A stretch of DNA of 20,000 nucleotides, taken from the IMG/VR virus record IMGVR_UViG_3300028048_000125; one strand, written 5' to 3'. This document shows positions 559 to 18,037 of the stretch, piece by piece. The notes beneath the pieces are model-generated. The model did not search any database and was not told the DNA's origin. It worked only from the letters and a program-made list of their open reading frames with translations. A program made the translations under genes and the position numbers. This DNA is from an uncultured virus (IMG/VR IMGVR_UViG_3300028048_000125). Taxonomy: Duplodnaviria > Heunggongvirae > Uroviricota > Caudoviricetes. Each line of letters starts with the position of its first letter. The stretch's first letter is position 1.

Positions 559-933
559 TCAGGCGTTGATGATTGCTCTCTCGAAATCCTTGAGAGCAGC
601 GAGGATGTTGCGCTTCATTTCTTCGGCGCGGTCGGAGCAGCACTCAGGGCTGCACCCATTACTTACTGTAGCACGCTGTTTGATGTCACGCGAAACGCGC
701 ATCTGGACATCATTCGTGTCGAAGATGACGATGTCATTGTCACGCAACAGCGCGTTACGAAGATGGCCAATGTAGCTGTGACCATTGCGGATAATGCGAA
801 TACGCGCATCTTCCACATCATAGCCACCAGTTTCAAGGGCCCGCTTCAGCTTGTCAACAGTGGTGTTACCGTTGATGGCAAGCTTGTTGGTTCTGACAGA
901 CTTTACGAGGAAAGTCACTGTCTTTTCGCTCAT
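559..933 (-). CDS. Putative ubiquitin-like (beta-grasp) protein with Cys-containing C-terminal extension
   Basis: TVTFLV...TTVDKLKRAL...IRIIRNG...LRDNDIVIF matches the Ubl pattern; SD GGAGG; start overlaps the E1 stop; no terminal Gly-Gly. Confidence 0.6.
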   Translation of the reverse strand: MSEKTVTFLVKSVRTNKLAINGNTTVDKLKRALETGGYDVEDARIRIIRNGHSYIGHLRNALLRDNDIVIFDTNDVQMRVSRDIKQRATVSNGCSPECCSDRAEEMKRNILAALKDFERAIINA

Positions 934-1841
934 TAATTACCTCCTTGGGGTGTTGTGAGCATGTGGGTTAACGGTACTGACTTGAACGTGTTCTCGTCCA
1001 GTACCACTTCGTTGTAACGACACGTCTGCCCCTTGCGAGTGGGGAAATCGCTCAGAGTTCCATGCGTTACCCAATGTACGAACATTTCCATCATCTTAAT
1101 AGCGACAGCACAATTGGTGAGCGCGACCTGGTCGTGCTTCGGTGCAACAATTGTACAAGCGATCTCATCGGGTCGCTTGTCACGATCAGGACGGATGTTG
1201 TCAAACAGCTCCGGGAGATTCGGATCCAAAGCTCTACCCTCCATCCTTTCGTAAATGCTGACCTCACCAGTTGTCTTTTCGTTTCCGCCATTGATAACCA
1301 AAATGTTATTGAAGGCCTCGGCGTACATCGAGATCTCATAACGGGTTTTTGCGTTATCAACGCAGATGAAGATAACAGGAATGTCCATTACATACATACG
1401 ATTGCCAATCAGCCGATCGGAAAGACAGAGATCATCGAACGTTTTTGTATTCTCTGCGTTTTCTTCCGGATTCTTAACCGGTATAATGTTCCCGATATTC
1501 TGCGGCGTAAGATAACAATTGTAGCCGTCCAGTTTAATGTTCCGCAGGAAAGTCTTGCGGATCATCTTCTCCTGCAGGTCGAGCATACGCTGCATCATCT
1601 TATTGCCAGCCCCTGCACCCTGTCGGATCGCATTGTGGGGATCAAACGTATCCCCATCGATCAGGGTGATGCTGTCAACAATAGATGGCAGTGCGCATTT
1701 GCCTGCATTAGTCATGAATGGCGAAATGTCGATACTGTTCTGCTCAAGGAAGTCTAGGCACATACTTGCACAGCACTCTGACAAGAGCTGTGTCACGTAG
1801 CCGCCTATCCCTCCGCAGCCTACAACGTAAAGCCTCAGCAC
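933..1841 (-). CDS. ThiF/MoeB/E1-like adenylating enzyme
   Basis: VVGCGGIGG nucleotide-binding loop, LIDGDTFDPHNAIRQ, ICVDNAKTR, INGGN, candidate catalytic Cys in RPDEIACT. Confidence 0.92.
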   Translation of the reverse strand: MLRLYVVGCGGIGGYVTQLLSECCASMCLDFLEQNSIDISPFMTNAGKCALPSIVDSITLIDGDTFDPHNAIRQGAGAGNKMMQRMLDLQEKMIRKTFLRNIKLDGYNCYLTPQNIGNIIPVKNPEENAENTKTFDDLCLSDRLIGNRMYVMDIPVIFICVDNAKTRYEISMYAEAFNNILVINGGNEKTTGEVSIYERMEGRALDPNLPELFDNIRPDRDKRPDEIACTIVAPKHDQVALTNCAVAIKMMEMFVHWVTHGTLSDFPTRKGQTCRYNEVVLDENTFKSVPLTHMLTTPQGGN

Positions 1842-3208
1842 TCCTCATCCTCCTCGTCTTTCGGATTAGCATGCTCTGCCTGTGCTGCCAGGATGGTCTC
1901 ATATGCCTGCTTCAGCGTGGTCAGCCATGTGTTCACGGTATCATCGGACACACACGGCGTATCGGAATACGCGGACGCCGCTTTCTGAAGCAGATAGCAC
2001 AGAGACTCGACATTGATATCATTGCCAAGTGCATTTCGCTTATCTACGATATTGAAGTCCGGTCGCAAGTCCATCAGCCCTTCGAAGATCTGTCTGGCTT
2101 CTTCGTCCTCCAGATCCTTCAGTACCGTTTCACCGGTCATCATATCTTCGATCGAGATAAGAACATCCGTCTTGTCGAGACTATCGACAATCATAATACC
2201 TGTGGTCATCTCCAGAGGTCCTCGAACGGCCGGATCTGTGAAGACATCAACCAACATGGCAGCTGTATCACTGTCGTTGAGAGCATCGAGTATGGCATTC
2301 TTGAGCTCTTTGGTTGAGTCCACGGTAATCTCTGAGGCTGTAGTACCTGTGATATCATCTGCATAATCTGACTCCCATGCACCACTTGACCAGCCGCCGT
2401 ACCATCTGCTGCCGTACCAGTCAGCACCATACCAGTTGCTTCCTCTATAGGTGTTGTACCAGCTGGAATAACCGTAATCAGGATCGTAGGTGTAACCTGC
2501 ATAGTTGTCTGCTGGCTTGTAATGACCCGCAGGCAGGGTACGTTGTGAGACAACGGCGCCATTGTTGCCGTAGACTTTGACTGTCGCGGTTGGCTTGCGA
2601 TAGGATTGGCGCTTAATTGTTTCAACCCACTCCTGCACAGGCTCATACACCTGTGTGAAGTCGACATCCTCCAGAACATCTTCGATGTCCTGATCTTCCT
2701 GCTGGCTCGGGAAGAAGACGGTGCACTTGATCTGAGATACCAGACCGTTGCGCAGGCCAAACACGATGTGCAGGCCATGTTTAAACTGCTGATCGTTCAG
2801 GTCTGTGCCGCTCCAGAACGCACCCATCTCAGGATGCGTATGGATGCTGCCAAGAAGGGCATACCCTTCCGGCATATCTTTTCCATCATCGTAGAAAGAC
2901 ACAGAGGCACCGCTGCCATTCTGTTCCGGTACTTTGACAGCCCACTTCTTTTCTTCTGTGCTGTAATAGAGACTGTAGGCGGTCTCCATCTTGGGGAATT
3001 CGTGGATTGTCCCCAACACCTGCTTGAGAAGGTCTGCCTGCATCTTGGCGCCTATCCAGCGAGGACCATGGAACTTGTCTGTATCCAGTTCTTTACTAGC
3101 ATAGGTTTGCAGATCTTCAAGGTTCTTTGGCTTAACCCAGCCATCGAGACACTCACTAATCAGTCGTACACGCACACCGTCGTTACCGACTACATAATCT
3201 TTACTCAC
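1835..3208 (-). CDS. JAB/MPN+ (JAMM) metallo-isopeptidase with long C-terminal extension
   Basis: Upstream Glu (KMETA) and GSIHTHPEMGAFWSGTD = H-x-H-x7-S-x2-D; followed by a Y/W/G-rich linker and an acidic helical region. Confidence 0.9.
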   Translation of the reverse strand: MSKDYVVGNDGVRVRLISECLDGWVKPKNLEDLQTYASKELDTDKFHGPRWIGAKMQADLLKQVLGTIHEFPKMETAYSLYYSTEEKKWAVKVPEQNGSGASVSFYDDGKDMPEGYALLGSIHTHPEMGAFWSGTDLNDQQFKHGLHIVFGLRNGLVSQIKCTVFFPSQQEDQDIEDVLEDVDFTQVYEPVQEWVETIKRQSYRKPTATVKVYGNNGAVVSQRTLPAGHYKPADNYAGYTYDPDYGYSSWYNTYRGSNWYGADWYGSRWYGGWSSGAWESDYADDITGTTASEITVDSTKELKNAILDALNDSDTAAMLVDVFTDPAVRGPLEMTTGIMIVDSLDKTDVLISIEDMMTGETVLKDLEDEEARQIFEGLMDLRPDFNIVDKRNALGNDINVESLCYLLQKAASAYSDTPCVSDDTVNTWLTTLKQAYETILAAQAEHANPKDEEDEEC

Positions 3209-3395
3209 AGCGGTTCTCCCGTTTCAGTGCACTTGCAATGCATGCCTGAACATCACGCGACAATGTGAAGTTCCTGGTCACGTCCAGTGCGCTCTCGAAA
3301 CATTTCTCAAAATTGTGTTCTGTCAGCATAGGAAGCTTCGTAACCTGTGGAAGCACCTTCTGCGGACGTTTGCGTTGTTTGATCGATTTAATCAT
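3201..3395 (-). CDS. Small hypothetical protein (64 aa)
   Basis: Fills the gap between the E2-like and JAB genes, overlapping both by 8 nt. Confidence 0.55.
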   Translation of the reverse strand: MIKSIKQRKRPQKVLPQVTKLPMLTEHNFEKCFESALDVTRNFTLSRDVQACIASALKRENRCE

Positions 3396-4329
3396 TCATA
3401 TCCATCCCAAGGAATCTATCCGCCGGCATGATCTCTGTGAACTTGAAAGCTTTCATGGATTCCAGATCAGAGAAGACTCTGGCAAGCCTAATCATATGAA
3501 GGATGCTGCTTCCGTTATGCGAATACCGGCTAAGCAACGCCTCATATTCGTCAACTTTCGGCAAATCTTTGTATGCACGCTCGGCTGAAAGCTTATCTCT
3601 GTCGTCCAGCAGATCATAATTGAACTGCGAGTTGAAGAAGCGTTGATAAGTCAGCTCGATTGCCACAGCTTCCGTTACTTTGACTCCTGGTGGTACGTCA
3701 TAACTTGTATCGCCCCAACAGATATTACCGCTGTCAAAGATATTCGGGAAAGGCAGATGACATACCTTGGTCTTCTCAAGGTCGTTCATATGTTCAGGTA
3801 CTGCCACCATCATTACCTGATCAGGTACATTGGCAGCTGTAAGCTGAACCCTGAGCCACATGCGAGGATGATAAATATGCAACCTCTGATCAACACCCTG
3901 GAGATCCATCTCGAACTGGGTAGGTGGGATCTCCACAGTGATATCTTTGGCTCCGGCATCCAGTACACACCACCGAATGAGTGGATACTTCAGATTCGGT
4001 GTAATGGCGATCTTCTGACCTTGCAGCAGTCTCTCGGCAAACGCATCAAAGAAGACATCTTGAATGTCTTTGATGTGATAGCGTGCAACGTTATCACCCA
4101 GAATGCGCAACACCTGCTCTTTGGTTGAGTCTTTAATGACCGTGATATGTTCTTTGTCTCCCTTCAGCGTTGGTACCACTCGCGTGATAAATTCATCCAC
4201 TGTCATCTCTTCCAGAGAATCAAAGTGAACGGCCGTAACGACGCCTCCATGCTGATGGAACAGATCGGACTGTCTATCTACAAGGTGCATAAGACCTGTA
4301 GGAAACGTGCTGTCAATGTCACCGATCAT
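3388..4329 (-). CDS. Prokaryotic E2-like conjugating enzyme (Prok-E2 family D / PRTRC protein B-like)
   Basis: HLPFPNIFDSGNICWGD with candidate catalytic Cys, downstream FFNSQFN; operonic with JAB and E1. Confidence 0.75.
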   Translation of the reverse strand: MIGDIDSTFPTGLMHLVDRQSDLFHQHGGVVTAVHFDSLEEMTVDEFITRVVPTLKGDKEHITVIKDSTKEQVLRILGDNVARYHIKDIQDVFFDAFAERLLQGQKIAITPNLKYPLIRWCVLDAGAKDITVEIPPTQFEMDLQGVDQRLHIYHPRMWLRVQLTAANVPDQVMMVAVPEHMNDLEKTKVCHLPFPNIFDSGNICWGDTSYDVPPGVKVTEAVAIELTYQRFFNSQFNYDLLDDRDKLSAERAYKDLPKVDEYEALLSRYSHNGSSILHMIRLARVFSDLESMKAFKFTEIMPADRFLGMDMND

Positions 4330-6277
4330 TTAGTAGTTCCTTAAATTGTTGTTCGTTTATGATTTTGATCCCTAGCCTTTCGGCTTTGGAACGCTTGGAC
4401 CCGCCACCCTCGCCAGCCAGCAAATAAGAAGTTGAAGATGAAACCGATGACACAAACTTGCCACCGTGATCTTCTATCAGCTTCTTAATCTGATCCCTGC
4501 TCTGCGAAAGTGTCCCAGTAATGCAAAATGACAGACCTGTGAGTTTTTCGCTGACAAGCTCAGTCTTCACCTGCTCCATACAAAGACCCAGCAATGACAG
4601 ATCATTGATTAGGGTTGCTTTATGTGGACTGTGAATACTGATAAAGATGGAACGAGCTGTGATCTCGGCAAAGCCTTCAATCTCTGCAATCTCAGGAATA
4701 GAAGCTTTTAGCAACGGAAGCATAGACCCGAAATGCTTTGCTACGATCCTTGCATTGGTTGTACCTATGCCATCGATACCTATTGCGCACAGAACACGGT
4801 CGAAAGGCTTCTGCTTCGACTTTTCGATCTCAGCGAGCACAGAGTCTGCTTTCAGATCTTTGCTAATACCAGGAAGCTGGAGATCTTCCTTTGTTAGCTT
4901 GTACAGATCCGCCGGGGAATGCAGCTTACCCTTCACGATAAGCGCATGGATCATGGCGTCAGCCATGCCCCGTATGTCCATACACTGCCTGCTTACGAAA
5001 TAGCAGATCTCTGCCTGCAGCTTCGCAACACAGTCGTCATTAGGACACAGCAATGCGGCCCCATCACGAACAAGCGCAGCTCCACACTCTGGACAAAGCC
5101 CCGGTATTGGAACCTCGGCACCACCCATTGACTCAACGACATGGTCGAGTTGAGGGATAATCTCTGCTGCCTTATAGACAGCCACCATATCGCCGAGCTT
5201 AAGATCCATCTCTTTGATGTAGTCGATGTTATGCAGACTGGCATGGGTCACAGTCGATCCGCACAGACCAACCGGATCCAAGACAGCCACAGGTGTCAGT
5301 GTGCCTTTACGTCCGACTTGCCAAACGACATCCTTCAGCTCTGTAACAGCTTCTACCGGTGTAAATTTGAAGGCAATGGACCATTTAGGATCATGTACAC
5401 CCTCACCCAGCTCCAGCCGTTTGGCTCTGTCGTCTGTCTTGATAACAGCCCCATCAATTGCATACGGGATGTTTGCTTCATCAGACTTCAGGGACATGAT
5501 CACATAATATGCGAACTCACCCGGATCGGCCATACGATTGGACACAAAGTTCATCTGTGGCGTCAGGAACCCATTCTCCTGCAGTATGTTGAGCATATTG
5601 CACTCTGTACCTGTGTTCAGCCCTGGAATATCATACGCATAGAATGTGAGCCGTCTGCAGCGCGTGACTCTGGGATCTTTGTTTCTAACGCCGCCTGCTG
5701 CGGCGTTACGCGGATTGGCGAACAGTGGTGCTCCTGTAACCTGGCGTTCGAGATTCAGCGTCTCGAACTCATGCTTATGGATAACCACCTCGCCACGAAC
5801 GATCAGTTTTTCCTCTTTGATTTTCACCGGGATGGACTTGATCATCAACGCATTCTGCGTAACATCTTCGCCAACATCCCCATTGCCACGAGTCGCTGCC
5901 CGAACCAGCATATGGTTCTCATAGAACAGGACCAATGTTAAGCCGTCCAGTTTAGGCTGTACGACATAACCTTCACCAGCTAACGCCAGCGTCCGGTCCA
6001 CGAAACGATGAACCTCGTCAGCCGTAAACGCATTTGCCAGTGACAGCATCCGTTGCGGAAATGGAACCTTGTCAAAGCTGCTTACCGGATGACCTCCTAC
6101 ACGAGAAGTCGGGCTGCTCGGCAGCTTGATCGATGGATCCGCTTCTTCCATCTCTTTGAGCCTCCGCACAATTGCATCATAGTCTGCATCGGACATGATG
6201 GGTGCGTCGAGCTCATGATAGGCCCTCTCGGCTTCGAGTGCCTTACTTAGCAGTGCCTTGTAGCTGTCTTGCTGCAT
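4319..6277 (-). CDS. ligA: NAD-dependent DNA ligase
   Basis: SDADYD, MLSLANAF, KLDG adenylation motif, TRGNGDVGEDVT, NPRNAAAG, C4 zinc finger (CPEC...CPNDDC), HhH repeats, C-terminal BRCT (FCITGTL...GGK). Confidence 0.98.
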   Translation of the reverse strand: MQQDSYKALLSKALEAERAYHELDAPIMSDADYDAIVRRLKEMEEADPSIKLPSSPTSRVGGHPVSSFDKVPFPQRMLSLANAFTADEVHRFVDRTLALAGEGYVVQPKLDGLTLVLFYENHMLVRAATRGNGDVGEDVTQNALMIKSIPVKIKEEKLIVRGEVVIHKHEFETLNLERQVTGAPLFANPRNAAAGGVRNKDPRVTRCRRLTFYAYDIPGLNTGTECNMLNILQENGFLTPQMNFVSNRMADPGEFAYYVIMSLKSDEANIPYAIDGAVIKTDDRAKRLELGEGVHDPKWSIAFKFTPVEAVTELKDVVWQVGRKGTLTPVAVLDPVGLCGSTVTHASLHNIDYIKEMDLKLGDMVAVYKAAEIIPQLDHVVESMGGAEVPIPGLCPECGAALVRDGAALLCPNDDCVAKLQAEICYFVSRQCMDIRGMADAMIHALIVKGKLHSPADLYKLTKEDLQLPGISKDLKADSVLAEIEKSKQKPFDRVLCAIGIDGIGTTNARIVAKHFGSMLPLLKASIPEIAEIEGFAEITARSIFISIHSPHKATLINDLSLLGLCMEQVKTELVSEKLTGLSFCITGTLSQSRDQIKKLIEDHGGKFVSSVSSSTSYLLAGEGGGSKRSKAERLGIKIINEQQFKELLNDR

Positions 6278-6308
6278 CGAAATGAATCTCCAGCGGTTTG
6301 AAATACTT
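6243..6308 (-). CDS. Predicted exon 2 of the reverse transcriptase (KYFKPLEIHFDAARQLQGTAK*)
   Basis: In frame with exon 1 if the intron ends at G 6309 (...ATGACAG|AAG); stop at 6243-6245; overlaps the ligA start by 35 nt. Confidence 0.6.
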   Translation of the reverse strand, partial: KYFKPLEIHFDAARQLQGTAK

Positions 6309-6420
6309 CTGTCATGATTATATACCAGGCGCTGCCTGGAGCCAATCTTCCTGCTTCAACTTCAGCGAGTACTCGCTGAATCCACAGGCACTTCGGGCCT
6401 GACCGGCCCTGCATTCTTCA
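6309..6420 (-). ncRNA. TnpB omegaRNA scaffold / element right end (5' boundary approximate)
   Basis: GCCTGTGGA...GAAGCAGGAA motifs typical of TnpB 3' ends; perfect 20-nt palindrome TTCAGCGAGTACTCGCTGAA (6361-6380); terminal hairpin GATT..CCAGGC-AGC-GCCTGG..AATC just before the end. Confidence 0.72.
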
Positions 6421-7480
6421 AATTGATTGCGGCATTGAGATCGCGGTCGATGACCGCTCCACAATGCTCGCATTTATACACACGTTCACTTAAATCGATA
6501 TGTGGTTTCACAGCACCACAGGAAGAGCACCTTTTGGTTGATGGGAAGAACCTATCAACCTTATGGTATTCAAGTGCCTTGTATTTGAGCTGCTGTAGGA
6601 TCATTCCCATCATTGAGGCATTAAAGGATCGTCGTAATGACTTGAATTGCGCTTTATCCTTCATTTCCTGTATGTGCAGATCCTCTGTTACAACAATCCC
6701 GTGGCTTTTGGTGATCGCTGTGGTGAACTTATGTGTCACATCCTTACGGATGTTATTAATCTTGTTTTGAATACGCTGTTTCTTGAGAAGAGCTTTGGCT
6801 CTGTTGTTGGAGCCTCTTTTCTTCCTATTGATAGCTTGTTGAGCCTTCTTGAGCTTGGCATCAAGCTTTTTGAGGCTTTCAGGAGCATCGCAAATGGTGC
6901 CATCAGATGCAACCGCCACATGTTTCAATCCGACATCTATGCCAACTGCAGAGTTCAGATTATTTGTCTGCGGCAGCGGATCTGGAAGCTCATATTGTAT
7001 GGAGACATGCCACTGACCAGCATAATGACTGACAGTGTAACTTGTTATCTTGCCTTCAAATCTAGGGCGTTCAGCAAGTCTCACTCTGCCTATATTTGGA
7101 AGGGATATTCTGTCTCCATATATTCTAGCTTTGTCATTAGCAACTGTAAAGCTATCCTTTCTACCTTTCTTGTGGAATGTAGGATACTTTCCAGTGCCTC
7201 TCCAAAGATTTTGAAATGCTTCGCCAAGATTCTTTATGGCGTTCTGTTGTGGACTACATGCTATTTCATGCGCCCACTCTGGCTTTGCTGCTGTCCATAT
7301 ATTGGATAATATACTAAAGGATGGTTTCTGCTTAGAGTGATCTTCCATCCAATCAGAATACATGGACTTCCACTTATCCAGTGCCCAGTTATACACGTAT
7401 CGTGCGGTGCCTGCTGTCTTTTTCAGCATCACCTCTTGCTCCTTTGTAGGATACATGCGTATTAGATGGGCTCTATGCAT
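6362..7480 (-). CDS. tnpB: TnpB RNA-guided endonuclease (IS200/IS605/IS607 superfamily)
   Basis: N-terminal IRMYPTKEQ...ARYVYNWAL, RuvC-I GIDVG, RuvC-II TEDL, zinc finger CSSC/CEHC, RuvC-III DRDLNAAIN; catalytic D-E-D intact. Confidence 0.96.
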   Translation of the reverse strand: MHRAHLIRMYPTKEQEVMLKKTAGTARYVYNWALDKWKSMYSDWMEDHSKQKPSFSILSNIWTAAKPEWAHEIACSPQQNAIKNLGEAFQNLWRGTGKYPTFHKKGRKDSFTVANDKARIYGDRISLPNIGRVRLAERPRFEGKITSYTVSHYAGQWHVSIQYELPDPLPQTNNLNSAVGIDVGLKHVAVASDGTICDAPESLKKLDAKLKKAQQAINRKKRGSNNRAKALLKKQRIQNKINNIRKDVTHKFTTAITKSHGIVVTEDLHIQEMKDKAQFKSLRRSFNASMMGMILQQLKYKALEYHKVDRFFPSTKRCSSCGAVKPHIDLSERVYKCEHCGAVIDRDLNAAINLKNAGPVRPEVPVDSASTR

Positions 7481-7589
7481 TTCTTTTATACCTTTGGTAG
7501 AATTTCGGACTATATTGTCCTTATTTACTATAGCATCATCGTCAAAACAAGATTTGAAGAATGACTTAGATTGGTTGTATAACCATGGT

Positions 7590-7883
7590 TCTGTTCAACA
7601 GGTATCGCTACTACCTGCCAGGTTTCCAGTTGTCAAGCTGGACCACTCCCATGCTTTCGCATGGGCACTGACTATATCATTTACCTATTCCTAGGTAAGA
7701 GCACTTCCCCTTTCCAATAGCTTGATCGGGTACTCCTGTTAAGGATAGTCGATGAACCTTCTTTGCGGCGGGTTTCTCTCGCTGCAAAGCTCGGCTTAGG
7801 ATTAGCATGCACTGCTGTGTTTAGCCTTCCCTAAATTAACTTTCTTGTTCGATAAGGATTACTCCTTAAAGGGACTCTTACGA
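7590..7883 (-). ncRNA. Group I intron catalytic core of the RT intron (3' boundary approximate)
   Basis: R-like GTTCATCGACTA (P7 5' strand 7746-7750), S-like ATGATATAGTC (7670-7674), P9 CCCATGC-GAAA-GCATGGG (7648-7665). Confidence 0.88.
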
Positions 7884-8825
7884 ATCCTGAATCACGGGGT
7901 CATTCCCATCGAATCCTTCATCCGACTGAGCCCTGCAAGCATTCATATAGCGGACACAACCGACAACCTTTGCCCACTGCTTCCAGTCGTCATACTGAAT
8001 CTCACCACCTTGGTTGATAAAGACCTTGTAGTACAAATTGCAGACAGCCGCCCGTGTATTCTGTCTGTAACGACGGCTGGCATTATAGCCCTTACCATCC
8101 TGACGGATGACGATACCGAGCTGTCGCGGACTGGAATGCGGAGCACCTCTGAATACACAACGATCTTTCATGTGGTTAAGCTCCAAGCCTAATGTGTTCT
8201 TGATAATGGTTTCAACACCCATAAGGAACCAGACGAATGGATTCTTGCTGTGAGACTCGTGTGTCTTTTTCAGCATCTCTTCCATCTCTTTGCTTACATG
8301 CTCCAACGAAAACAGCATATCATCAGCATATCTGGTATAGACGAACCCGTGCTCCTTGGCATAGCTGGCAATCATGTTGTCAGCGTCGAACATGGCGATA
8401 TTCGTCAGCATCGGGCTAGCAGGGCCGCCTTGCGGTATCTGGCCATTGCATACGCAAACGCGCATGATACCGTCGACATACGGCTTAGCCACATAACCGT
8501 CCAGCATCTTCGCAGCTGCCATCGACGGCGGACAATTGTCAAAGAACGACTTGACATCACAGCTCACCCAGCAACGGGGTGTCCTTGAGTGTTTGACGAT
8601 CGATGTCATGCAGCCACGATACGGGATGAACCCATGCGCACATGCGGATACTTTAATAGTGCCTGCCCTGATCAAGGCATACAGATAATCCAGCACGTCC
8701 TTCTGCACTTCTTTAAGGGCATCATTCGGGATTTTGATATCCCTGAATTCACCCGGCGTCTTCTTTGGAATACGCCCATCCCGCCACGTTGTGTCAACAT
8801 GATTGAGATCGTAGAGGTTTAACAT
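7884..8825 (-). CDS. Retron-like reverse transcriptase, exon 1 (about 335 aa when spliced)
   Basis: IPKK..GEFRDIKIP...LKEVQ, AHGF, CDVKSFFD, IPQGGPASPMLTN, YTRYADD, QLGIVI; no maturase/endonuclease extension. Confidence 0.92.
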
Positions 8826-9352
8826 TGGAATACCTTAAATGTTATACGGTTAAAGACCACGACATAGAGGAGGGTATCTATGTCCCTGAATTTGAGAGTA
8901 TAATCGTAGAAAACCCCTCCACTACGACTATCAAGAAAGCAACGATTGAGATGATACCTGTGCTGAAACCACGTGGAGGCACAAGCATCACAGAGACCAG
9001 TCTTGTCTTTCTACACGAGGCCGAGAAATCCGACAAAGAATCCAAAGACCATATTATCATAGCTATAGACCCCAATAGGTGGAAGCTATGCTATAAGACC
9101 AATAAACTGGCTATTCTGGATCCTTGCGGCTTTCATGGTCACATGCTGCTGGTTGTTGACAAGAGCATGGAACAGATACTAATAAAAGCCGACGACCGCA
9201 AGCTATCCCTGCAGTTCAGCAACAATAAGCTTACGATCGCCGGTTGTCAGCGCTCTGCACTTTTGCGCTCGGCTATCACGAGACAGCTAAGCGCCGCAGA
9301 CGCTAGAATGTCATCATCTGAATATCGCACAACTGATCCCACATCTGAGTAA
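8825..9352 (+). CDS. Hypothetical protein (175 aa), only credible plus-strand gene
   Basis: Open for 175 codons across a region with no long minus-strand ORF; TTG start with GAGG upstream; protein-like composition; start overlaps the RT ATG head-to-head. Confidence 0.6.
   Translation: MEYLKCYTVKDHDIEEGIYVPEFESIIVENPSTTTIKKATIEMIPVLKPRGGTSITETSLVFLHEAEKSDKESKDHIIIAIDPNRWKLCYKTNKLAILDPCGFHGHMLLVVDKSMEQILIKADDRKLSLQFSNNKLTIAGCQRSALLRSAITRQLSAADARMSSSEYRTTDPTSE
8852..9170 (-). ncRNA. Candidate structured RNA leader / RT-associated ncRNA
   Basis: Consecutive stem-loops at 8861-8884, 8900-8931, 8952-8990, 9003-9036, 9058-9090, 9142-9169; three A.C mismatches on + become G.U pairs on the minus strand. 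Confidence 0.5.
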
Positions 9353-9914: not shown

Positions 9915-10665
9915 CGCCTACCTCCAATGCTGTTTTGATTTGCCAATGGTTTCTGGATGCCTCTGCAGCAAATGATTTCAGCGGCAGCGTGAACACCAAG
10001 CTGCCATTTGTTGCAGGAATCCCTTTAGCGGCCACTACACAGCAGCCACCCGCACAAATGTATTCTGCCGGACAGATATAGCCGTCTTCCTTGTACTGCC
10101 CGAACAGTTCCAAGTTGTCGTGAAACTTCTTGAGAAGCTGTTCAGTGCTGTCACCCTTTTCTCCGCCAATAGCACGGATCAGTGTTGCTGAAAAGATGGG
10201 CTTCAGCGTCTCAGGCTTTTTGGAGATCCTATACAGGTCTGGAAGATGCACCTGATATGCGCTGTAGATCGTACCAGTGGCCATAGACATGATTCGCTGC
10301 TCAAGCCATTTCGGACAATGATCTTCATCGACCTCGCGCCACTCACAGAACCTGGTCTGTGTTGCCGTTTCTCCATTCTTCAGCATGTTGGATGGCACGT
10401 TAATGCCAACACGGTTGCTGCCTGAGATAATGGTCATAAGATCGCGATCGCGAAAAGCTACGACAGGCCTGCCATGCACCTGATATACAATAGGAGCCGC
10501 TGACGAATAGAAGACGTGACCTCGTGAACAGGATAGCACATTCAGTCGCAGATTGGATAGCAGCAGATAATCACCTGCTATGCGCTTATGACCTCCTGTC
10601 CATTTGAATACGGCAACATCTTCCAGACGGCGCAGCTTTACCATCTTGTCATGGAAGTTAATCAC
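9901..10665 (-). CDS. Hypothetical protein
   Basis: 254-aa ORF; GTGA start/stop overlap with the upstream gene. Confidence 0.75.
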   Translation of the reverse strand: MINFHDKMVKLRRLEDVAVFKWTGGHKRIAGDYLLLSNLRLNVLSCSRGHVFYSSAAPIVYQVHGRPVVAFRDRDLMTIISGSNRVGINVPSNMLKNGETATQTRFCEWREVDEDHCPKWLEQRIMSMATGTIYSAYQVHLPDLYRISKKPETLKPIFSATLIRAIGGEKGDSTEQLLKKFHDNLELFGQYKEDGYICPAEYICAGGCCVVAAKGIPATNGSLVFTLPLKSFAAEASRNHWQIKTALEVGDDVG

Positions 10666-11408
10666 TCGTCTGTCTTCTCCACGGTAAGATAGGGCGTCTG
10701 GTAATCCGGATATGCCAGCGCCACTGCGATTTGTTGCTCGTCCGTCAGCTTCTCAGCATCTGGTGACTTGAAGAAAGCATCACATGCTGCAGCCAGACTA
10801 TGCCATGAGCCGTCTCCTTCATGTGCAATGAAAATCGATGCCAGATCCTTGATATTCTCCATGATCTGCTCGGTTTCCTCGCAGACCACTTTGCCATTGG
10901 GGTCTGTAACAGGTTCTTCATCATACTGCTCCACAACATCGTTGAAGGCAGCGTAGATGATCTCCTGCTTGTCTTTTGGCAATTGCTGCAGAAGCGCTGC
11001 TTCCTGAGCAGTATTTAGCATCCCCTTGATTGCCTTTCCGTCGGTCTTAACATCACGACGAGTAAAAAGGAGATACAGGCAGTTCAGCAAAGAGATCATG
11101 ATGGTTTGCCAGACCGCTCTCACCGAGGGTCTGACCTTATTGATTGCATTGGCGAAATCCATCGCCTGCTGGAGAAGACTTGTTGGATCTTCTGCGGCAC
11201 GAATCTGAAGAATGTGATAGCATTTCGCCAGATATTCGTACTCTTTCTTGAGAGACTCGTCCTTGGTGGTCTCCATCAGGATATCCAGCGTGACTTTTGC
11301 CGCAGTCGGGAATATCGCTCGGATATCCGTCTGCGGATCATAGTAGGTCGAGTCGCCCTTGGAACGTACTCTTGTAAAATGGAGTACAGTTGGTTTTTCT
11401 TCGTTCAT
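10662..11408 (-). CDS. Hypothetical protein
   Basis: Likely start MNEEK at 11408 (ATGA overlap with upstream stop) rather than 11444. Confidence 0.75.
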   Translation of the reverse strand: MNEEKPTVLHFTRVRSKGDSTYYDPQTDIRAIFPTAAKVTLDILMETTKDESLKKEYEYLAKCYHILQIRAAEDPTSLLQQAMDFANAINKVRPSVRAVWQTIMISLLNCLYLLFTRRDVKTDGKAIKGMLNTAQEAALLQQLPKDKQEIIYAAFNDVVEQYDEEPVTDPNGKVVCEETEQIMENIKDLASIFIAHEGDGSWHSLAAACDAFFKSPDAEKLTDEQQIAVALAYPDYQTPYLTVEKTDE

Positions 11409-12127
11409 TCTTTTGTCTCCGGAAGCCAGATTGCCAGTGCGCACTGCTCAATCGTTTTAGGGCAGGTATTGCATGGCCTGAACGGCGTACACTTGCGAAC
11501 GTTACGCCGGGCTTCGGTTAATTCGCGGTTATATTTCTTTTCGTCATCCGTGCACTTCCAGTCCAGCACTTTCAGCTGGTCTCCTTGCATCTCGATGACG
11601 AGCGAAGCCCTCATACCAGATACTTCCTCAATGGCCGGGTTCAGACTTTTGCAGCCTGAATGCCGTTGCAGGAAGAACTGAAGTTGCCTGGGCGTGAAAG
11701 AACTCCTATATATTATGCCAGCAGAAATGCCATTTCTTAACTTCATTTCCACCGTCAGGTATAGTTTATCTTTCACGACCTCACGCCTCTTATCTATACC
11801 TGTAAACACTACTGATGCGTCTATGGATGTACCATCCCATATCGGTATGGGCATTCCCTCCATAATGAAGTGGAAGTTGGCCAATACACGATAGGAATTA
11901 CTTACCAACAGTTTTCTTGTCAGCTGCTGTCCCATAAGGTGTTCAGTAGACACAACCAGCTGATTCCACTGATGGTCTTTCAGCTTTTGTTTGTAGCAGG
12001 CATTCTTAAGAAGCGTACAATAGGCCGACAAAGCCTGTTTATCGCAGACTTTGCCGACCAGTTCGTTCAGTTTGTCCGATATGAGAGCGAAACGCTTACT
12101 TACTACGTTTGCGCTTGGAGCCTGCAC
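11405..12127 (-). CDS. Hypothetical protein with C-terminal Cys4 cluster
   Basis: Basic 240-aa ORF ending CTPFRPCNTCPKTIEQC (possible Zn or Fe-S site). Confidence 0.75.
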   Translation of the reverse strand: MQAPSANVVSKRFALISDKLNELVGKVCDKQALSAYCTLLKNACYKQKLKDHQWNQLVVSTEHLMGQQLTRKLLVSNSYRVLANFHFIMEGMPIPIWDGTSIDASVVFTGIDKRREVVKDKLYLTVEMKLRNGISAGIIYRSSFTPRQLQFFLQRHSGCKSLNPAIEEVSGMRASLVIEMQGDQLKVLDWKCTDDEKKYNRELTEARRNVRKCTPFRPCNTCPKTIEQCALAIWLPETKE

Positions 12128-13121: not shown

Positions 13122-13629
13122 AACTCTTCTCCTTTGGATTAAAGATGTTTGGCAATCTCAGCGGTGCATCGTCAATCTTGAAGATATGCAGTTCATCCTC
13201 ACCATTACGGAACCAAATGTCATACTGGCAATTGTCATAGGATGTTTGCATATTGGTGATAACGATGGAACGCAGTCCTGCAACAAGCACAAGGCAGGCC
13301 TCCTTATTACGGGAGACCTCCTTGCATTTAAGGAACAGCTCAAGCAGCGGACTCTTGGGAAAGTTCAGGATGGCTGCTGCAACATCTTTTACAGGCATAC
13401 GCTTGAAGAAGACGTTGTTCGGCAATCCAAGCCCATCACACAGTGCATCAACGGTATAAGGTAGGCGGTTCCCCAACTCGCCTACCACAGCCATCATATC
13501 TGCACGTGTTCTGGTAAACAGCTTCCAGTGATCCGCTATGAAACATATGATGTCATTGGACTTCTGCTGTCGCTTTTCCTGCTTATACGCTTGGGCAATA
13601 TCACCCATGAACGCTTTGATGTCGTCCAT
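13114..13629 (-). CDS. Hypothetical protein
   Basis: 171-aa ORF; start overlaps the RecA-like stop. Confidence 0.75.
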   Translation of the reverse strand: MDDIKAFMGDIAQAYKQEKRQQKSNDIICFIADHWKLFTRTRADMMAVVGELGNRLPYTVDALCDGLGLPNNVFFKRMPVKDVAAAILNFPKSPLLELFLKCKEVSRNKEACLVLVAGLRSIVITNMQTSYDNCQYDIWFRNGEDELHIFKIDDAPLRLPNIFNPKEKSYE

Positions 13630-14909
13630 CAGCTTTCACCTGCCAGCTTATCAATCAGATCCGTAGCAGGAGCCTCTTCTGGCAGACTTACTGGTACAGC
13701 CTTACGAATGCGCTTCTTGGTTACGGTCACTTCGACTGGTGTTTCAGGTTCTGCGTGGAAAGTGCCATCCTTCTTGCTCTTGAGATATGCCTTATAGCTG
13801 CTGAGATCCTTGATCTTGTCAATCTTCTGGTACACGTAGAGTGCATCCAGCGTCTTGCTGTTAGCAGGATCGAACAAGGCTGCCTCGAATTCCTCAGCGG
13901 GCACACTCTTGAGATTGAAGGTCGGACATGTCACGAGGCCGCTATCTGCAACCTTAACATCACAGATGTCACGGATCTCACCGACGCCTTTTTCAGGGTC
14001 TGCCAGACATTTGGCTGTTGCAAGTGCCCAGTCAAAGTGATGACCGTAGCCTGCCTTCTCGGTACCATACTTGTTCCAGCGGAACGCCACTTCGATCTTA
14101 CGGGCATCTGCAAATGACAGCTTGGTTGTTCTGAGCGTCAGGATTTTTCCATCACCTGATGCAAGTGCTTTATAGCTGGAGCTTATCATGCATCCGTCTT
14201 TGAACACCTGTGACTTGCCGCCAGTGACTGTCTTCTGCGGAGGGCCATATGCAGCGGCTGCAGCTTCCTTCTCCTGGTTAATGCATACGACTACCATTGG
14301 TATGTCACCAATGAGTGCACCCGCATTTTCGCAGAAGTATTTCATGAAGTGCGCCTTCTCATAGAAGCCTTTGCCAGCTACGCCATCGCTCTCAAGCTTC
14401 GACAGTGTATCACTGGCAGCTGCACCGCCAATAGAGTCAAGCCCGAGTATGATCGGAGTTTCACAACTCCCCATATGCTTACGATACATGGGGATGATCT
14501 TCTTGCAGATATGCTTGAATGCGCCGTCAAGAGTCAGATCCTTGATCACACTGAACCGCTCATAGACGTCTTCGCCATAGTTGGCCATAACACCTTCGAG
14601 CAGCGTGGGACTGATCTTGTCTTCGAGCTCATACAGGAACCCCAGACCTCCAAGTCCTCCGTTTTCTGGTGAGGCACAGACGTGACCCATAAGATCAAAC
14701 AGTAGTGGAGACTTGCATGCCTGAGGCATGCCGCTAATGGAATTGAATACTTTGATGCGCAGCCCTGTTGCACCGAACAGATATTGCTGCGCATAGTGAG
14801 CCAGAGGAAACCCGTACTGGTTCTCTTTAAGCTCCTTGACAGAGGTTACAATGCCCCCATCATCCTTGCGCAGCGCCTCCATCATAGAGTGGATTGCTGA
14901 TACGCCCAT
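13629..14909 (-). CDS. RecA/UvsX-like recombinase, divergent
   Basis: Walker A-like GMPQACKS, YELEDK, Walker B IILGLDSIG, VVVCINQ, TGGKSQVF; located next to SSB-like and polymerase genes. Confidence 0.8.
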   Translation of the reverse strand: MGVSAIHSMMEALRKDDGGIVTSVKELKENQYGFPLAHYAQQYLFGATGLRIKVFNSISGMPQACKSPLLFDLMGHVCASPENGGLGGLGFLYELEDKISPTLLEGVMANYGEDVYERFSVIKDLTLDGAFKHICKKIIPMYRKHMGSCETPIILGLDSIGGAAASDTLSKLESDGVAGKGFYEKAHFMKYFCENAGALIGDIPMVVVCINQEKEAAAAAYGPPQKTVTGGKSQVFKDGCMISSSYKALASGDGKILTLRTTKLSFADARKIEVAFRWNKYGTEKAGYGHHFDWALATAKCLADPEKGVGEIRDICDVKVADSGLVTCPTFNLKSVPAEEFEAALFDPANSKTLDALYVYQKIDKIKDLSSYKAYLKSKKDGTFHAEPETPVEVTVTKKRIRKAVPVSLPEEAPATDLIDKLAGES

Positions 14910-16361: not shown

Positions 16362-17024
16362 TTAGCCTTTCTGCGCTGTTCGCGCGTCGTGTAGTGATTG
16401 GACGAAGGGCGGCTCTTCCAGAATGGGGAGGCCGTCTGGGGTCCATTCAAGGGAGTCGAAAGTTTTCGCCTTCTTATCCCAATGTAGCATGCAGGATGAT
16501 TCTACACTAACCTTTACGTCAGTGATAAGAGAGCACATGCCCTGCAACATGAGCTTCTCAATGATAGGAATATGAGTTTGTAACTCATTGGGCCACAACC
16601 AGTAAACGAATTCGTCATGAATAAATGCGACCAAACGGTCAGCATATCCATTGTATACTAGATTCCAGCCGGCGAGCTTGGCTCCAAGGGCAACCTCTGC
16701 CTGAAACATATAATTCAGACTTGAGTTGAACGAACAGCGATCACGCATCTGACCACACTTCAATATAGCCATATACGCATGCTTTTTCTTGTCCTTTGGA
16801 TCCTCGTCTTCTTCTGAGTCCTCATCTCCCATCTGCCGAGTCATGCCGTAAGCATTGAAAGGAAGATCTGCACGTTTTGAGCGCAGCGGTATCTTATGCT
16901 GCTGCATTTCCGTGAAGGTCTCCTCCCAGGCTTTAACCATTTCCTCGGCTTGCTGCATAGTCAATTCAATGCCTTGACTACGGCAGTGTTGGTAGAATCG
17001 CAAAGCTTGCATTCCACCTGGTAA
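16362..17024 (-). CDS. polA: Family A DNA polymerase, exon 3 (LPGGMQ... to stop)
   Basis: Begins TTA CCA GGT GGA ATG right after intron G 17025; contains LNYMFQA and motif C LVAFIHDEF. Confidence 0.9.
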   Translation of the reverse strand, partial: LPGGMQALRFYQHCRSQGIELTMQQAEEMVKAWEETFTEMQQHKIPLRSKRADLPFNAYGMTRQMGDEDSEEDEDPKDKKKHAYMAILKCGQMRDRCSFNSSLNYMFQAEVALGAKLAGWNLVYNGYADRLVAFIHDEFVYWLWPNELQTHIPIIEKLMLQGMCSLITDVKVSVESSCMLHWDKKAKTFDSLEWTPDGLPILEEPPFVQSLHDARTAQKG

Positions 17025-17101: not shown

Positions 17102-18025
17102 TCAAAAGCCTAAATCTGGTTGTACATCCCAGCCATCGACTTCCGGAGCGGCCTCGTGGTGACTCATATCCGAGCTGGACGTGTCACTATGCGTTGCCCC
17201 TGACTGCGATTCCTCGCAGCCTTCGGTTCGGGTTAGCTTGTCAGCCTTTCCCGCTTCATTCCGCTCTTTTAATTCGGCTCTTTCTTTGCATAATTCAAAT
17301 ATAGCAGTAGCAGTGACCTGTTCAGTTTTTTGCATCTGTTTGCTCATCTTATGCAGCACCATATGGCAGTTCGCGCAAATTATAGCGAGATTAGAGATAT
17401 CATTGTTTGTGCGATCCATATCCTTATGGTGCACTACCAGCGCATCCTGATCGTCTGCAAAGCCACAAATCTCACAGACATCATGTCCCGTCATCACCTT
17501 TGCGCGATATCGAGATCGAGCTGCTTCTCGCATCTTCTCTGCATTAGCTGCGTAATATGCTCTACGCCGTGCATTTGTCTGGACTCGCGCTTCATCAGAA
17601 ATAGTTGTTTCCGTGTTTTGACCACCACCGGAACCCACACCTATTCTAACGGTTGGATCTCTCAATGCACGTTCGGCCATAACAGACTTCGAGCGATGCT
17701 TATGCCAGCAGTCATCGCATCTAAGCTTTGTCGTGCGTCCGTGAAATTCAAATTGCTTGCCGCAGTCTACACAAGTTAATATTTTAGTGGGAACTGTATG
17801 CGCTAATTGACATGCCGCACAACAATACTGTTTGGTCGGCTTACCGGCTTTAAGCTTGTATGTAATCTCTTTCCCGCAACCCTTACATACACCTTTATGT
17901 AACTCAAGTTTACTTAAGCGATACGCTTCTTTGCATCGACCAGAACAATACTTGTGTCGCTTGTTTGTGCGCTCAAATTCCTTGCCACAATACAGGCACT
18001 TTGCTATTTTGCTATACTCTTCCAT
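17102..18025 (-). CDS. HNH homing endonuclease with N-terminal zinc-ribbon repeats
   Basis: Three CxxC...CxxxC-type repeats, then CEICG...LVVHHKDMDRTNNDISNLAIICANCHMVLH; SD AGGAG (18031-18035) favours ATG 18025; last ~60 codons read through the ribozyme core. Confidence 0.92.
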   Translation of the reverse strand: MEEYSKIAKCLYCGKEFERTNKRHKYCSGRCKEAYRLSKLELHKGVCKGCGKEITYKLKAGKPTKQYCCAACQLAHTVPTKILTCVDCGKQFEFHGRTTKLRCDDCWHKHRSKSVMAERALRDPTVRIGVGSGGGQNTETTISDEARVQTNARRRAYYAANAEKMREAARSRYRAKVMTGHDVCEICGFADDQDALVVHHKDMDRTNNDISNLAIICANCHMVLHKMSKQMQKTEQVTATAIFELCKERAELKERNEAGKADKLTRTEGCEESQSGATHSDTSSSDMSHHEAAPEVDGWDVQPDLGF

Positions 18026-18037
18026 AAACACTCCTAA

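Follow-up and report, generated by a model that had tools for sequence, protein, structure and literature searches.

A TnpA-less IStron in a phage reverse transcriptase gene and the proposed part of its TnpB in RNA-guided intron homing

We analysed a stretch of 20,000 nucleotides (nt), hereafter the window, from an uncultured virus (Caudoviricetes; IMG/VR record IMGVR_UViG_3300028048_000125) in which every large open reading frame (ORF) lies on the minus strand. Near the 3' end of a phage reverse transcriptase (RT) gene, window positions 7883-6309 of the minus strand are occupied by an element of 1,575 nt that begins as a group I ribozyme and continues with an intact tnpB gene and the scaffold of a guide RNA (omegaRNA). 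Taking its identity, its splicing and its inferred homing together, we regard it as probably a TnpA-less IStron, that is, a mobile group I intron with tnpB and omegaRNA in its 3' extension. IStrons are defined by an insertion sequence (IS) part located downstream of the P9 extensions and after a GAAC.. motif such as GAACGA, GAACAA or GAACAC (PMC4227781), and an inverted-repeat (IR) stem closes the ORF region of all of them (Tourasse et al. 2014, PMC4227781). The RT gene that hosts the element is retron-like: besides its Pfam match (Table 1), it scores 119.6 bits on the NCBIfam retron St85 RT model, below the cut-off of that model, and matches PHROG 2825 'polymerase' with an E-value of 2.4e-26. 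It carries the RT motifs QGGPASP...YADD and has 23 homologs, several of them on contigs of 121-196 kb.

The original prediction, made from the letters of the window, had placed a canonical P1 and a full ribozyme core exactly where the RT frame stops, and a full-length match to the group I intron model RF00028 bears this out. Within a continuous P1 helix, a U7884.G7875 wobble is flanked by the pair A7885-U7874 on one side and U7883-A7876 on the other, which sets the 5' splice site after 7884; past this point the RT frame enters TCG TAA within the intron. The P9 helix covaries among relatives, as judged by eye, and the nucleotides of a proposed 2-bp P9.0 (UG that follows P7, CA that precedes the terminal G) are invariant in the family. 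A gap of 167 nt separates the ribozyme core from the tnpB ORF. The repeat search identified a perfect 12-nt inverted repeat with 9 A-U pairs (75% A-U), here called the IR stem, its 5' arm standing shortly after the GAACAG motif and its 3' arm within the final codons of tnpB. These two arm positions again give the best complement in 20 of 29 family elements, the arms having 9 different sequences, and for 9 of those 20 elements the stem length was reached by 0 of 100 shuffles. Adjoining the IR stem's 5' arm is a second perfect complementarity of 13 nt (7542-7554 with 6758-6770), which chance would not lead one to expect within 1.6 kb; its partner lies in codons in the middle of tnpB (QNKIN). At the other extremity, the similarity among 21 sequences, those of the window and of 20 aligned relatives, ceases precisely after ...GACAG at 6309. 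The repeat search of the element and its flanks found neither a target-site duplication, nor a terminal inverted repeat, nor palindromes shared by the left and right ends; hairpins are present at both ends, namely P1/P2 and the omegaRNA stems.

Table 1. Coordinates of the IStron, its host gene and neighbouring features in the window
Feature	Position	Strand	Remarks
Whole IStron (intron)	6309..7883	-	Starts UCGUAA..., ends ...CAUGACAG; exactly the stretch skipped in RNA-library contigs X5 and X8
P1 helix	7872..7887	-	GGAU (7887-7884, exon) and UC (intron) pair with GA-GUCC (7877-7872); loop GUAA; from Rfam alignment and sequence
Internal guide sequence	within 7877-7872	-	GA-GUCC strand of P1
Group I ribozyme core P1-P9	7648..7893	-	RF00028, 61.9 bits (gathering score 50), E 8.7e-14, model positions 1-253 (full model)
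P7 strands GACUA / UAGUC and P9 CCCAUGC-GAAA-GCAUGGG	in 7648..7893	-	Part of ribozyme core
GAACAG motif	7591..7596	-	Downstream of P9 extensions; read from sequence by eye
IR stem, 5' arm	7552..7563	-	CAUUCUUCAAAU; pairs with 6423-6412, tnpB ORF looped out
IR stem, 3' arm	6412..6423	-	AUUUGAAGAAUG; in final tnpB codons, immediately upstream of omegaRNA stem-loops
tnpB	6362..7480	-	372 amino acids (aa), intact, IS200/IS605-like; Pfam, PDB and NCBIfam matches
omegaRNA scaffold	6309..6457	-	Terminal G at 6309; alignment A2 of 32 elements
omegaRNA stems	6457-6443; 6409-6395 (loop GGUCA); 6380-6361; 6339-6325	-	Four stem-loops
omegaRNA closing stem	6347-6344 / 6319-6316	-	Scored structure
omegaRNA pseudoknot	GUCA 6403-6400 / UGAC 6314-6311	-	Complementary, invariant bases
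5' flank CAGGAU	7884..7889	-	Place where the transposon-adjacent motif (TAM; required by TnpB beside its target) would be; read from sequence
Predicted 20-nt guide/target	6289..6308	-	AAGUAUUUCAAACCGCUGGA; first 20 nt of exon 2; guide length assumed
RT exon 1	7884..8825	-	Retron-like, YADD motif; ends GAU CCU GUG AUU CAG GAU (DPVIQD); Pfam RVT_1 1.8e-18
RT exon 2	6243..6308	-	21 codons and stop, AAG UAU UUC..., in RT frame
NAD-dependent DNA ligase (ligA)	4319..6277	-	Start overlaps RT tail; DNA_ligase_aden 4.6e-65; neighbour, outside element
UvsX-like recombinase	13629-14909	-	PHROG 97, 9.7e-11; 6 kb away
PolA C-terminal piece	16362-17012	-	After PolA intron
HNH endonuclease ORF	17102-18031	-	In 3' part of PolA intron
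PolA intron core	18391-18156	-	RF00028, 57.9 bits; P1 U.G places 5' splice site after 18382

Three RNA libraries and one DNA run, all from bovine gut, were compared with window 5900-8300 at the level of assembled contigs rather than reads. Two RNA contigs originating from two studies, X5 (312 nt) and X8 (751 nt), connect 6308 directly to 7884 and lack the 1,575 nt between, the joint having zero ambiguous letters. The sample of X5 also provided RNA run X2, which yielded unspliced contigs across both junctions (5900-6362 and 7768-7913), and intron contigs of at least 99% identity co-occur in this sample with the unspliced and the joined ones, which is what a precursor plus a spliced mRNA would give. 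In the DNA run, X3, one contig of 1,924 nt passes through the whole intron and no joint was seen. Whether it stems from splicing or from an intron-less strain, the joint proves the exact boundaries of the element, and the ends of the element are exactly the splice sites. The splice sites originally predicted at 7884 and 6308 therefore stand on the P1 wobble, on the joint, and on the common 3' boundary, and the junction suggested as a check has turned up, exact to the nucleotide, in contigs from RNA libraries. We consider it very probable that the element is an IStron and that it splices.

Joining 7884 to 6308, as had been proposed, restores the conserved tail of the RT, exon 2 reading KYFKPLEIHFDAARQLQGTAK up to a stop codon in the RT frame. 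On L001, a related viral contig whose homologous site lacks the IStron stretch, the RT (58% identical) is an uninterrupted ORF (L001:5965-6987) ending with ...DPCIQQKYWQPLEVHFAAARNI and a stop; its homologous tail, KYWQPLEVHFAAARNI and stop, aligns with no insertion or deletion at the junction and overlaps the start of the ligase gene as it does in the window. RT homologs numbered 23 at E ≤ 1e-20, of which 10 were fetched, and the homologous tail (K-[YF]-[YFW]-[KQ]-P-L-E...) is in frame in all 10. The search for intron-less homologs that the original prediction had suggested also came out positive in P0124, a 96% identical RT homolog of 338 aa that is unbroken (...DPVIQDKYFKPLEIHF..., with the tail IQDKYFKPLEIHF) and reads ...DPVIQDKYFKPLEIHFDAARQLQ... 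and ...DPVIQDKYFKPLEIHFDAARQLQSTAKQST across the junction, so that IQD-KYFK is contiguous. For annotation this carries a warning: the RT is called 21 codons too short, and tnpB bears the label of a transposase.

The tnpB product was compared with protein models and with proteins of solved structure. Its Pfam matches are OrfB_IS605 (2.7e-23), Cas12f1-like_TNB (1.6e-17) and HTH_OrfB_IS605 (7.1e-16), and on NCBIfam models it scores 267.7 bits for guided_TnpB (cut-off 100) and 264.6 bits for IS200_TnpB versus 212 for IS607_TnpB. The top natural protein of solved structure is ISDra2 TnpB (8bf8/8exa; E 2.2e-48, residues 2-358), and the residues matching the RuvC D-E-D triad and both CxxC pairs of the zinc finger are conserved in this alignment. 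We take the catalytic triad to be the positions aligned with D191, E278 and D361 of ISDra2 TnpB, a numbering counted from the alignment. The ratio of nonsynonymous to synonymous substitution rates (dN/dS) was 0.13 against L004 and 0.10 against L005, the two closest loci and those for which it is usable, dS being saturated in 6 of 8 comparisons; TnpB is thus under purifying selection.

The omegaRNA was characterized on the last 165 nt of 32 elements (alignment A2), with the scored structure read from the window sequence. In this alignment 81.2% of the cells are paired, as compared to 31-37% in controls with partners shifted by 1-3 columns; covariation gives a score of 0.358, reached by 0 of 500 shuffles and set against at most 0.075 in these slid controls, and two-sided changes occur in 19 of 33 pairs, figures to be read with the proviso that a structure taken from one of the aligned sequences somewhat favours it over the slid controls. 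The bases of the pseudoknot, formed between the GGUCA loop and the UGAC before the terminal AG, are invariant, hence consistent with the pairing and uninformative for covariation. RNAalifold run on A2 returned a single stem (5 pairs), because the subfamilies align with gaps. In a search of region 6100-8000 with E-values up to 10, no Rfam family matched the omegaRNA, the intron and two chance-level matches being all that was returned. The element carries a conserved, covarying scaffold for a guide RNA. Since UGAC lies just before the terminal AG, the pseudoknot ties the 3' splice site into the fold of the guide RNA. Directly after P9 (about 7647-7640, minus strand) stands the sequence AGUGGUC, which the subfamily of 50% or higher TnpB identity has conserved. 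The GGUC within it recurs in the omegaRNA loop GGUCA and complements the GAC that precedes the 3' splice site. That this motif could be the competitor by which the ribozyme contends for the same 3' end is only an idea.

TnpB follows the rule that its guide adjoins the right end of the element (bioRxiv 10.1101/2023.11.20.567912), and the predicted guide, which opens exon 2, takes in the ribosome-binding site (GGAG) of ligA. On the opposite side, the tetranucleotide of the 5' flank (-4..-1) is, as determined by eye, complementary to four bases of the internal guide sequence in 22 of 22 aligned family sequences, and the flank itself varies (GGAT, GTAT, GAGT, GGTT, GAAT, GGAG, GGCG). In L004, L005, L087, L021, L032 and L035, GGAG or GGCG is paired with CUCC or CGCC, versus GGAU with GUCC in the window; none of these six close relatives has the U.G wobble at the aligned splice position, where L004, L005, L087 and L021 show a G-C pair, and the 5' exon of L004, L005 and L087 may end in G or at a later U.

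The element belongs to a large family carried on gut and rumen phage contigs of 180-195 kb. At E ≤ 1e-10 TnpB has 2,803 homologs; identity is 56-100% for the best 120, and nearly all of these are metagenomic. Loci drawn from metagenome, viral and genome collections contained 257 tnpB copies; among those with at least 500 nt upstream, 49 of the 69 copies of 40% or higher TnpB identity were immediately preceded by intron-like sequence, versus 3 of 149 below 40%, counts that are not all independent, as some loci are possibly one contig present in two collections. At its gathering score, Rfam detected an intron upstream of tnpB in 2 of 17 related loci (L006 and L008); with the intron of the window itself as query, blastn and nhmmer revealed many more, indicating that the Rfam miss is a problem of sensitivity and not absence. 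The terminus ...GACAG is invariant in the 32 aligned elements, and 33 distinct family elements end with C[AG][AT]GACAG, followed by 31 different 3' flanks. In five related viral records, of which three (181-194 kb) are complete and bear terminal repeats, the TnpB profile has 17 matches, with 1-6 per complete genome, and 11 of the 17 have RF00028 directly upstream at E ≤ 1e-3. Two records of related phages of 95-192 kb (G002 and G004, the records of L084 and L091) contain several TnpB matches with one in-frame TAG, TAA or TGA, and G004 holds 12 RF00028 matches, a pattern that fits intron-rich phages that may recode stop codons.

L001, empty at the RT site, holds a sister IStron on its plus strand from 1966 to about 3609, with an intron at 1966-2213 (65.9 bits), the flank GCTAT, a TnpB-like ORF of 417 aa at 2263-3516 and the end ...CAUGCCAG, ...CATGCCAG. 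This sister element splits a gene between KCY and SIFQIR, whereas the homolog of that gene in the window (10662-11444, minus strand) is whole (KCYHILQIR). Each phage is empty where the other is filled, and the two are therefore reciprocally polymorphic at two sites.

The absence of tnpA from a phage context, on which the original prediction had based the view that TnpB may act as a pure homing endonuclease, was reproduced, as were its intact tnpB and its omegaRNA: none of 48 ORFs of at least 100 aa in the window (19 + 29) encodes a TnpA, and Y1_Tnp and Resolvase were found in none of the five related viral records (three complete), both models scoring in control genomes. All the features listed in the original prediction are present at the coordinates it gave, and two of the three outcomes it had named as refuting, a missing spliced junction and uninterrupted RT homologs with another end, did not occur. 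Among 185,579 prokaryote species, each represented by one genome, TnpB identity peaks at 46-47%, in relatives on three small contigs (3.1-5.0 kb) of metagenome-assembled genomes (MAGs), all other relatives in this set being at most 38% identical.

From these data we infer that RNA-guided homing by TnpB is the most likely route of mobility, and for the homing role of TnpB taken on its own we incline, with some reserve, towards accepting it. By analogy with CboIStron and with the literature on IS605 elements, the primary transcript would have two mutually exclusive fates. According to one, the ribozyme would fold, aided by the 12-bp stem (7563-7552 / 6423-6412) that loops out tnpB, the RNA would be cut after U7884, and the exons would be ligated at G6309 to give a full-length RT mRNA. 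According to the other, the 3' end would fold as omegaRNA, its pseudoknot taking the UGAC before the 3' splice site, and would bind TnpB, the guide being supplied by the opening ~16-20 nt of exon 2. During a mixed infection, the TnpB complex would then cut intron-less RT alleles carrying ...GGAT beside a matching target, and recombinational repair would copy the element into the cut allele. Such repair could be provided by the UvsX-like recombinase encoded in the window.

Several observations weigh against this reading of the element as a splicing and homing IStron, and other explanations account for part of them. The RNA evidence consists of contigs, and RNA libraries can contain DNA; X8 shows no intron sequence at 99% identity or above, so that its joined contig could derive from an intron-less strain; a single DNA run was compared, and contigs lose rare variants; and no convincing P10 pairing was found by eye. 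It might accordingly be argued that the joined contigs come from intron-less strains, as DNA carry-over or as transcripts, and that the ribozyme could be inactive, all the more as P0124 shows that uninterrupted ORFs do get assembled in public data. We consider this improbable, given that unspliced, intron (at least 99%) and joined contigs occur together in one sample (X2, X5), that the DNA run contains the intron form only, that the ribozyme fits the full Rfam model above its threshold and that an inactive intron would truncate the conserved RT tail; the boundaries would in any case remain those proven by the joint. A further view, in which the insertion is intergenic, the RT truly ending with ...IQDS and a stop and the following 66 nt being just a ligase leader, can appeal to the truncated ORF retaining all RT motifs and to the overlap of exon 2 with the start of ligA. 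It is hardly credible, being already contradicted by the homologous tail that continues in frame, with no indel at the junction, in all 10 fetched RT homologs.

As regards mobility, 20 of the 69 close tnpB copies have no intron-like match, the closest relatives L004 and L005 have GGAG and not GGAT at the aligned flank, with G-C in place of U.G, the exact 20-nt target has 0 matches in IMG/VR contigs, leaving no DNA-level empty site with a matching target, and the L001 empty allele has, by eye, 5 mismatches in the 20 positions of the guide and 3 in the 6 of the flank. Judged by these mismatches, the L001 allele would probably escape cutting and be immune. Empty sites that survive are often immune to cutting. 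The missing target in IMG/VR and the divergence of the sole DNA-level empty allele are also what one would expect of a fixed, immobile intron whose ribozyme keeps the RT intact and whose TnpB persists for some other use, for instance to cut rival phages, or has simply not yet decayed. This explanation we hold to be quite unlikely: TnpB has dN/dS values of 0.10-0.13 indicative of purifying selection and intact catalytic residues, the omegaRNA stems covary, each of two related phages is filled at one of two sites and empty at the other in reciprocal fashion, and P0124, 96% identical, has the uninterrupted sequence. Alternatively, the element could be a non-autonomous IS200/IS605 transposon moved as DNA by a TnpA acting in trans from the host cell or a co-resident element, TnpB merely restoring excised copies as in bacterial IStrons and homing in phages being secondary. 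The many unrelated sites with 31 different 3' flanks among 33 elements, the lack of both target-site duplication and terminal inverted repeat, the IS200/IS605-like type of TnpB, a 3' end ...CAG similar to the TCAG of group A IStrons, and a 5' flank always complementary to sequence within the left end agree with it. IS608-type TnpA likewise selects its targets by complementarity to a left-end sequence. Transposition in trans is nonetheless unlikely in our view, with neither a Y1 nor a serine TnpA found in the window or in the five related viral records (three complete), no palindromes shared by the left and right ends, and no cellular reservoir with a cognate TnpA in sight, as follows from the 46-47% identity of the best cellular relatives, confined to three small MAG contigs.

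A more far-reaching interpretation is that the element represents a third, phage-restricted and transposase-free group of IStrons with TnpB-omegaRNA as sole mobility engine. Dozens of copies on 180-195 kb gut and rumen phage genomes, six of them in one complete genome and all with the end ...GACAG, are compatible with it, as is a flank tetranucleotide that varies while the internal guide sequence always changes to match; we put it forward tentatively and with considerable doubt. If it were true, this lineage would colonise new sites with differing flanks without TnpA, a route new for IStrons, either by reverse splicing followed by cDNA recombination or by guide-swapping recombination as candidate routes, and its TnpB would tolerate, or co-evolve with, a loose, G-led flank motif. 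For the candidate route through cDNA, it may be mentioned that the interrupted host gene is itself an RT.

Whatever its grouping, the element gives a tangible example from nature on which to test a published but unvalidated idea, namely that a TnpA-less IStron may serve as an RNA-guided homing intron. A 2026 review proposes intron homing by TnpA-less IStrons and describes it as awaiting validation (PMC13565253). TnpB-guided homing has been demonstrated for CboIStron, and 'numerous' intron-associated tnpB clades are in print (both in bioRxiv 10.1101/2023.11.20.567912). In our literature search we found no description of this phage IStron family, although subscription journals and supplements may cover it. 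Public data already contain all three forms, namely the allele with the intron, the allele lacking it (L001, possibly P0124) and the spliced product. The family itself would provide compact TnpB proteins (~372 aa) with a flank motif that is not T-rich and a defined guide scaffold. Its size in transposase-free large gut and rumen phages bears on the intron richness of some phage groups; for crAss-like phages of 145-192 kb a high intron density has been reported in a paper whose main text does not mention TnpB. Specialists will not be surprised by such an element, yet it is an unusually complete natural case for RNA-guided intron homing in phages.

By its gene content, to which the retron-like RT belongs, the window is the replication module of a lytic-looking bovine-gut phage, and blastn in distant mode returned no GenBank phage with DNA similar to window 5900-8900. 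The family A DNA polymerase (PolA) gene (18391-16362, minus strand) is split by a second group I intron, which has an HNH endonuclease ORF in its 3' part, and the phage consequently carries protein-guided and RNA-guided mobile introns of the same layout. Beside the ligase gene, three adjacent minus-strand genes (933-4329) match ThiF (E1-like, 2e-07), Prok-JAB (5.6e-05, below cut-off) and Prok-E2_D (4e-09), a trio that looks like a ubiquitin-like conjugation/deconjugation set.

Compared to introns that home by means of a protein endonuclease, such as the PolA HNH intron of the window, the IStron shares the niche in phage DNA metabolism, an ORF located 3' of the core and an expected cycle of splicing at the RNA level and spread by double-strand-break repair in mixed infections. 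In contrast to these introns, its nuclease would be RNA-guided, with a target set by the 3' exon and not by protein-DNA contacts, and its 3' RNA must be either splice acceptor or guide. With the ISDra2 TnpB-omegaRNA complex (8bf8, 8exa, 8h1j) it has in common the D-E-D triad, the zinc finger and a guide RNA that overlaps the 3' end of the gene and extends into the flank, whereas ISDra2 has a TnpA, a TTGAT TAM, no intron and a TnpB of 408 aa as compared to 372 aa in the window.

Of the two described groups of IStrons (PMC4227781), group B (BcISt1; CboIStron; CbISt3/4 of c-st and D-1873; CsISt1, with ORF B only) shares the overall architecture and, like the family of the window, has phage-borne and TnpB-only examples. 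The statement accompanying the original prediction that IStrons were known holds; its restriction of them to Clostridium and Bacillus chromosomes understated their range, the same source recording phage-borne IStrons (c-st and D-1873 of C. botulinum) as well as ORF-B-only IStrons. For CboIStron, cleavage by TnpB-omegaRNA, homing and a conflict between splicing and guide RNA have been shown, and its layout of stem-loops and 3'-end pseudoknot is the same as in the window. In group B the target ends in GG, the element ends in CGG and the 5' splice site carries a G-C pair, where the window has GGAT, ACAG and U.G; further differences are a stem of 15-34 bp with >80% A-U pairs, as opposed to 12 bp with 9 A-U, and the TnpB, that of the window scoring higher on the IS200/IS605 model than on the IS607 model (264.6 vs 212 bits). 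The closest relatives L004, L005, L087 and L021 do have G-C at the aligned position.

With group A (CdISt1 of Clostridioides difficile and FnISt1, of IS200/IS605 type; PMC4227781), the element shares a 5' group I ribozyme with the IS part in its 3' extension, a GAAC.. motif, closure by an IR stem, an IS605-like TnpB, a 5' exon ending in U with U.G inside a continuous P1, a ...CAG end and the lack of target duplication; many group A copies are moreover without ORF A. The two differ in the flank, AGGAT in the window versus five bases rich in T (TTGAT, ATTAT, TTTAT) in group A, in the 3' end, ACAG versus TCAG with CAG alone in common, and in the stem, 12 bp with 75% A-U versus 6-10 balanced bp. 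In the window neither a tnpA remnant nor, by repeat search, subterminal palindromes were found, and its family is carried by large gut and rumen phages, whereas group A resides in chromosomes of Firmicutes and Fusobacteria. By its sequence, then, the element has every class-level feature of IStrons yet fits the end motifs of neither described group, A or B; TnpB type, continuous P1 and the ...CAG end bring it closer to group A.

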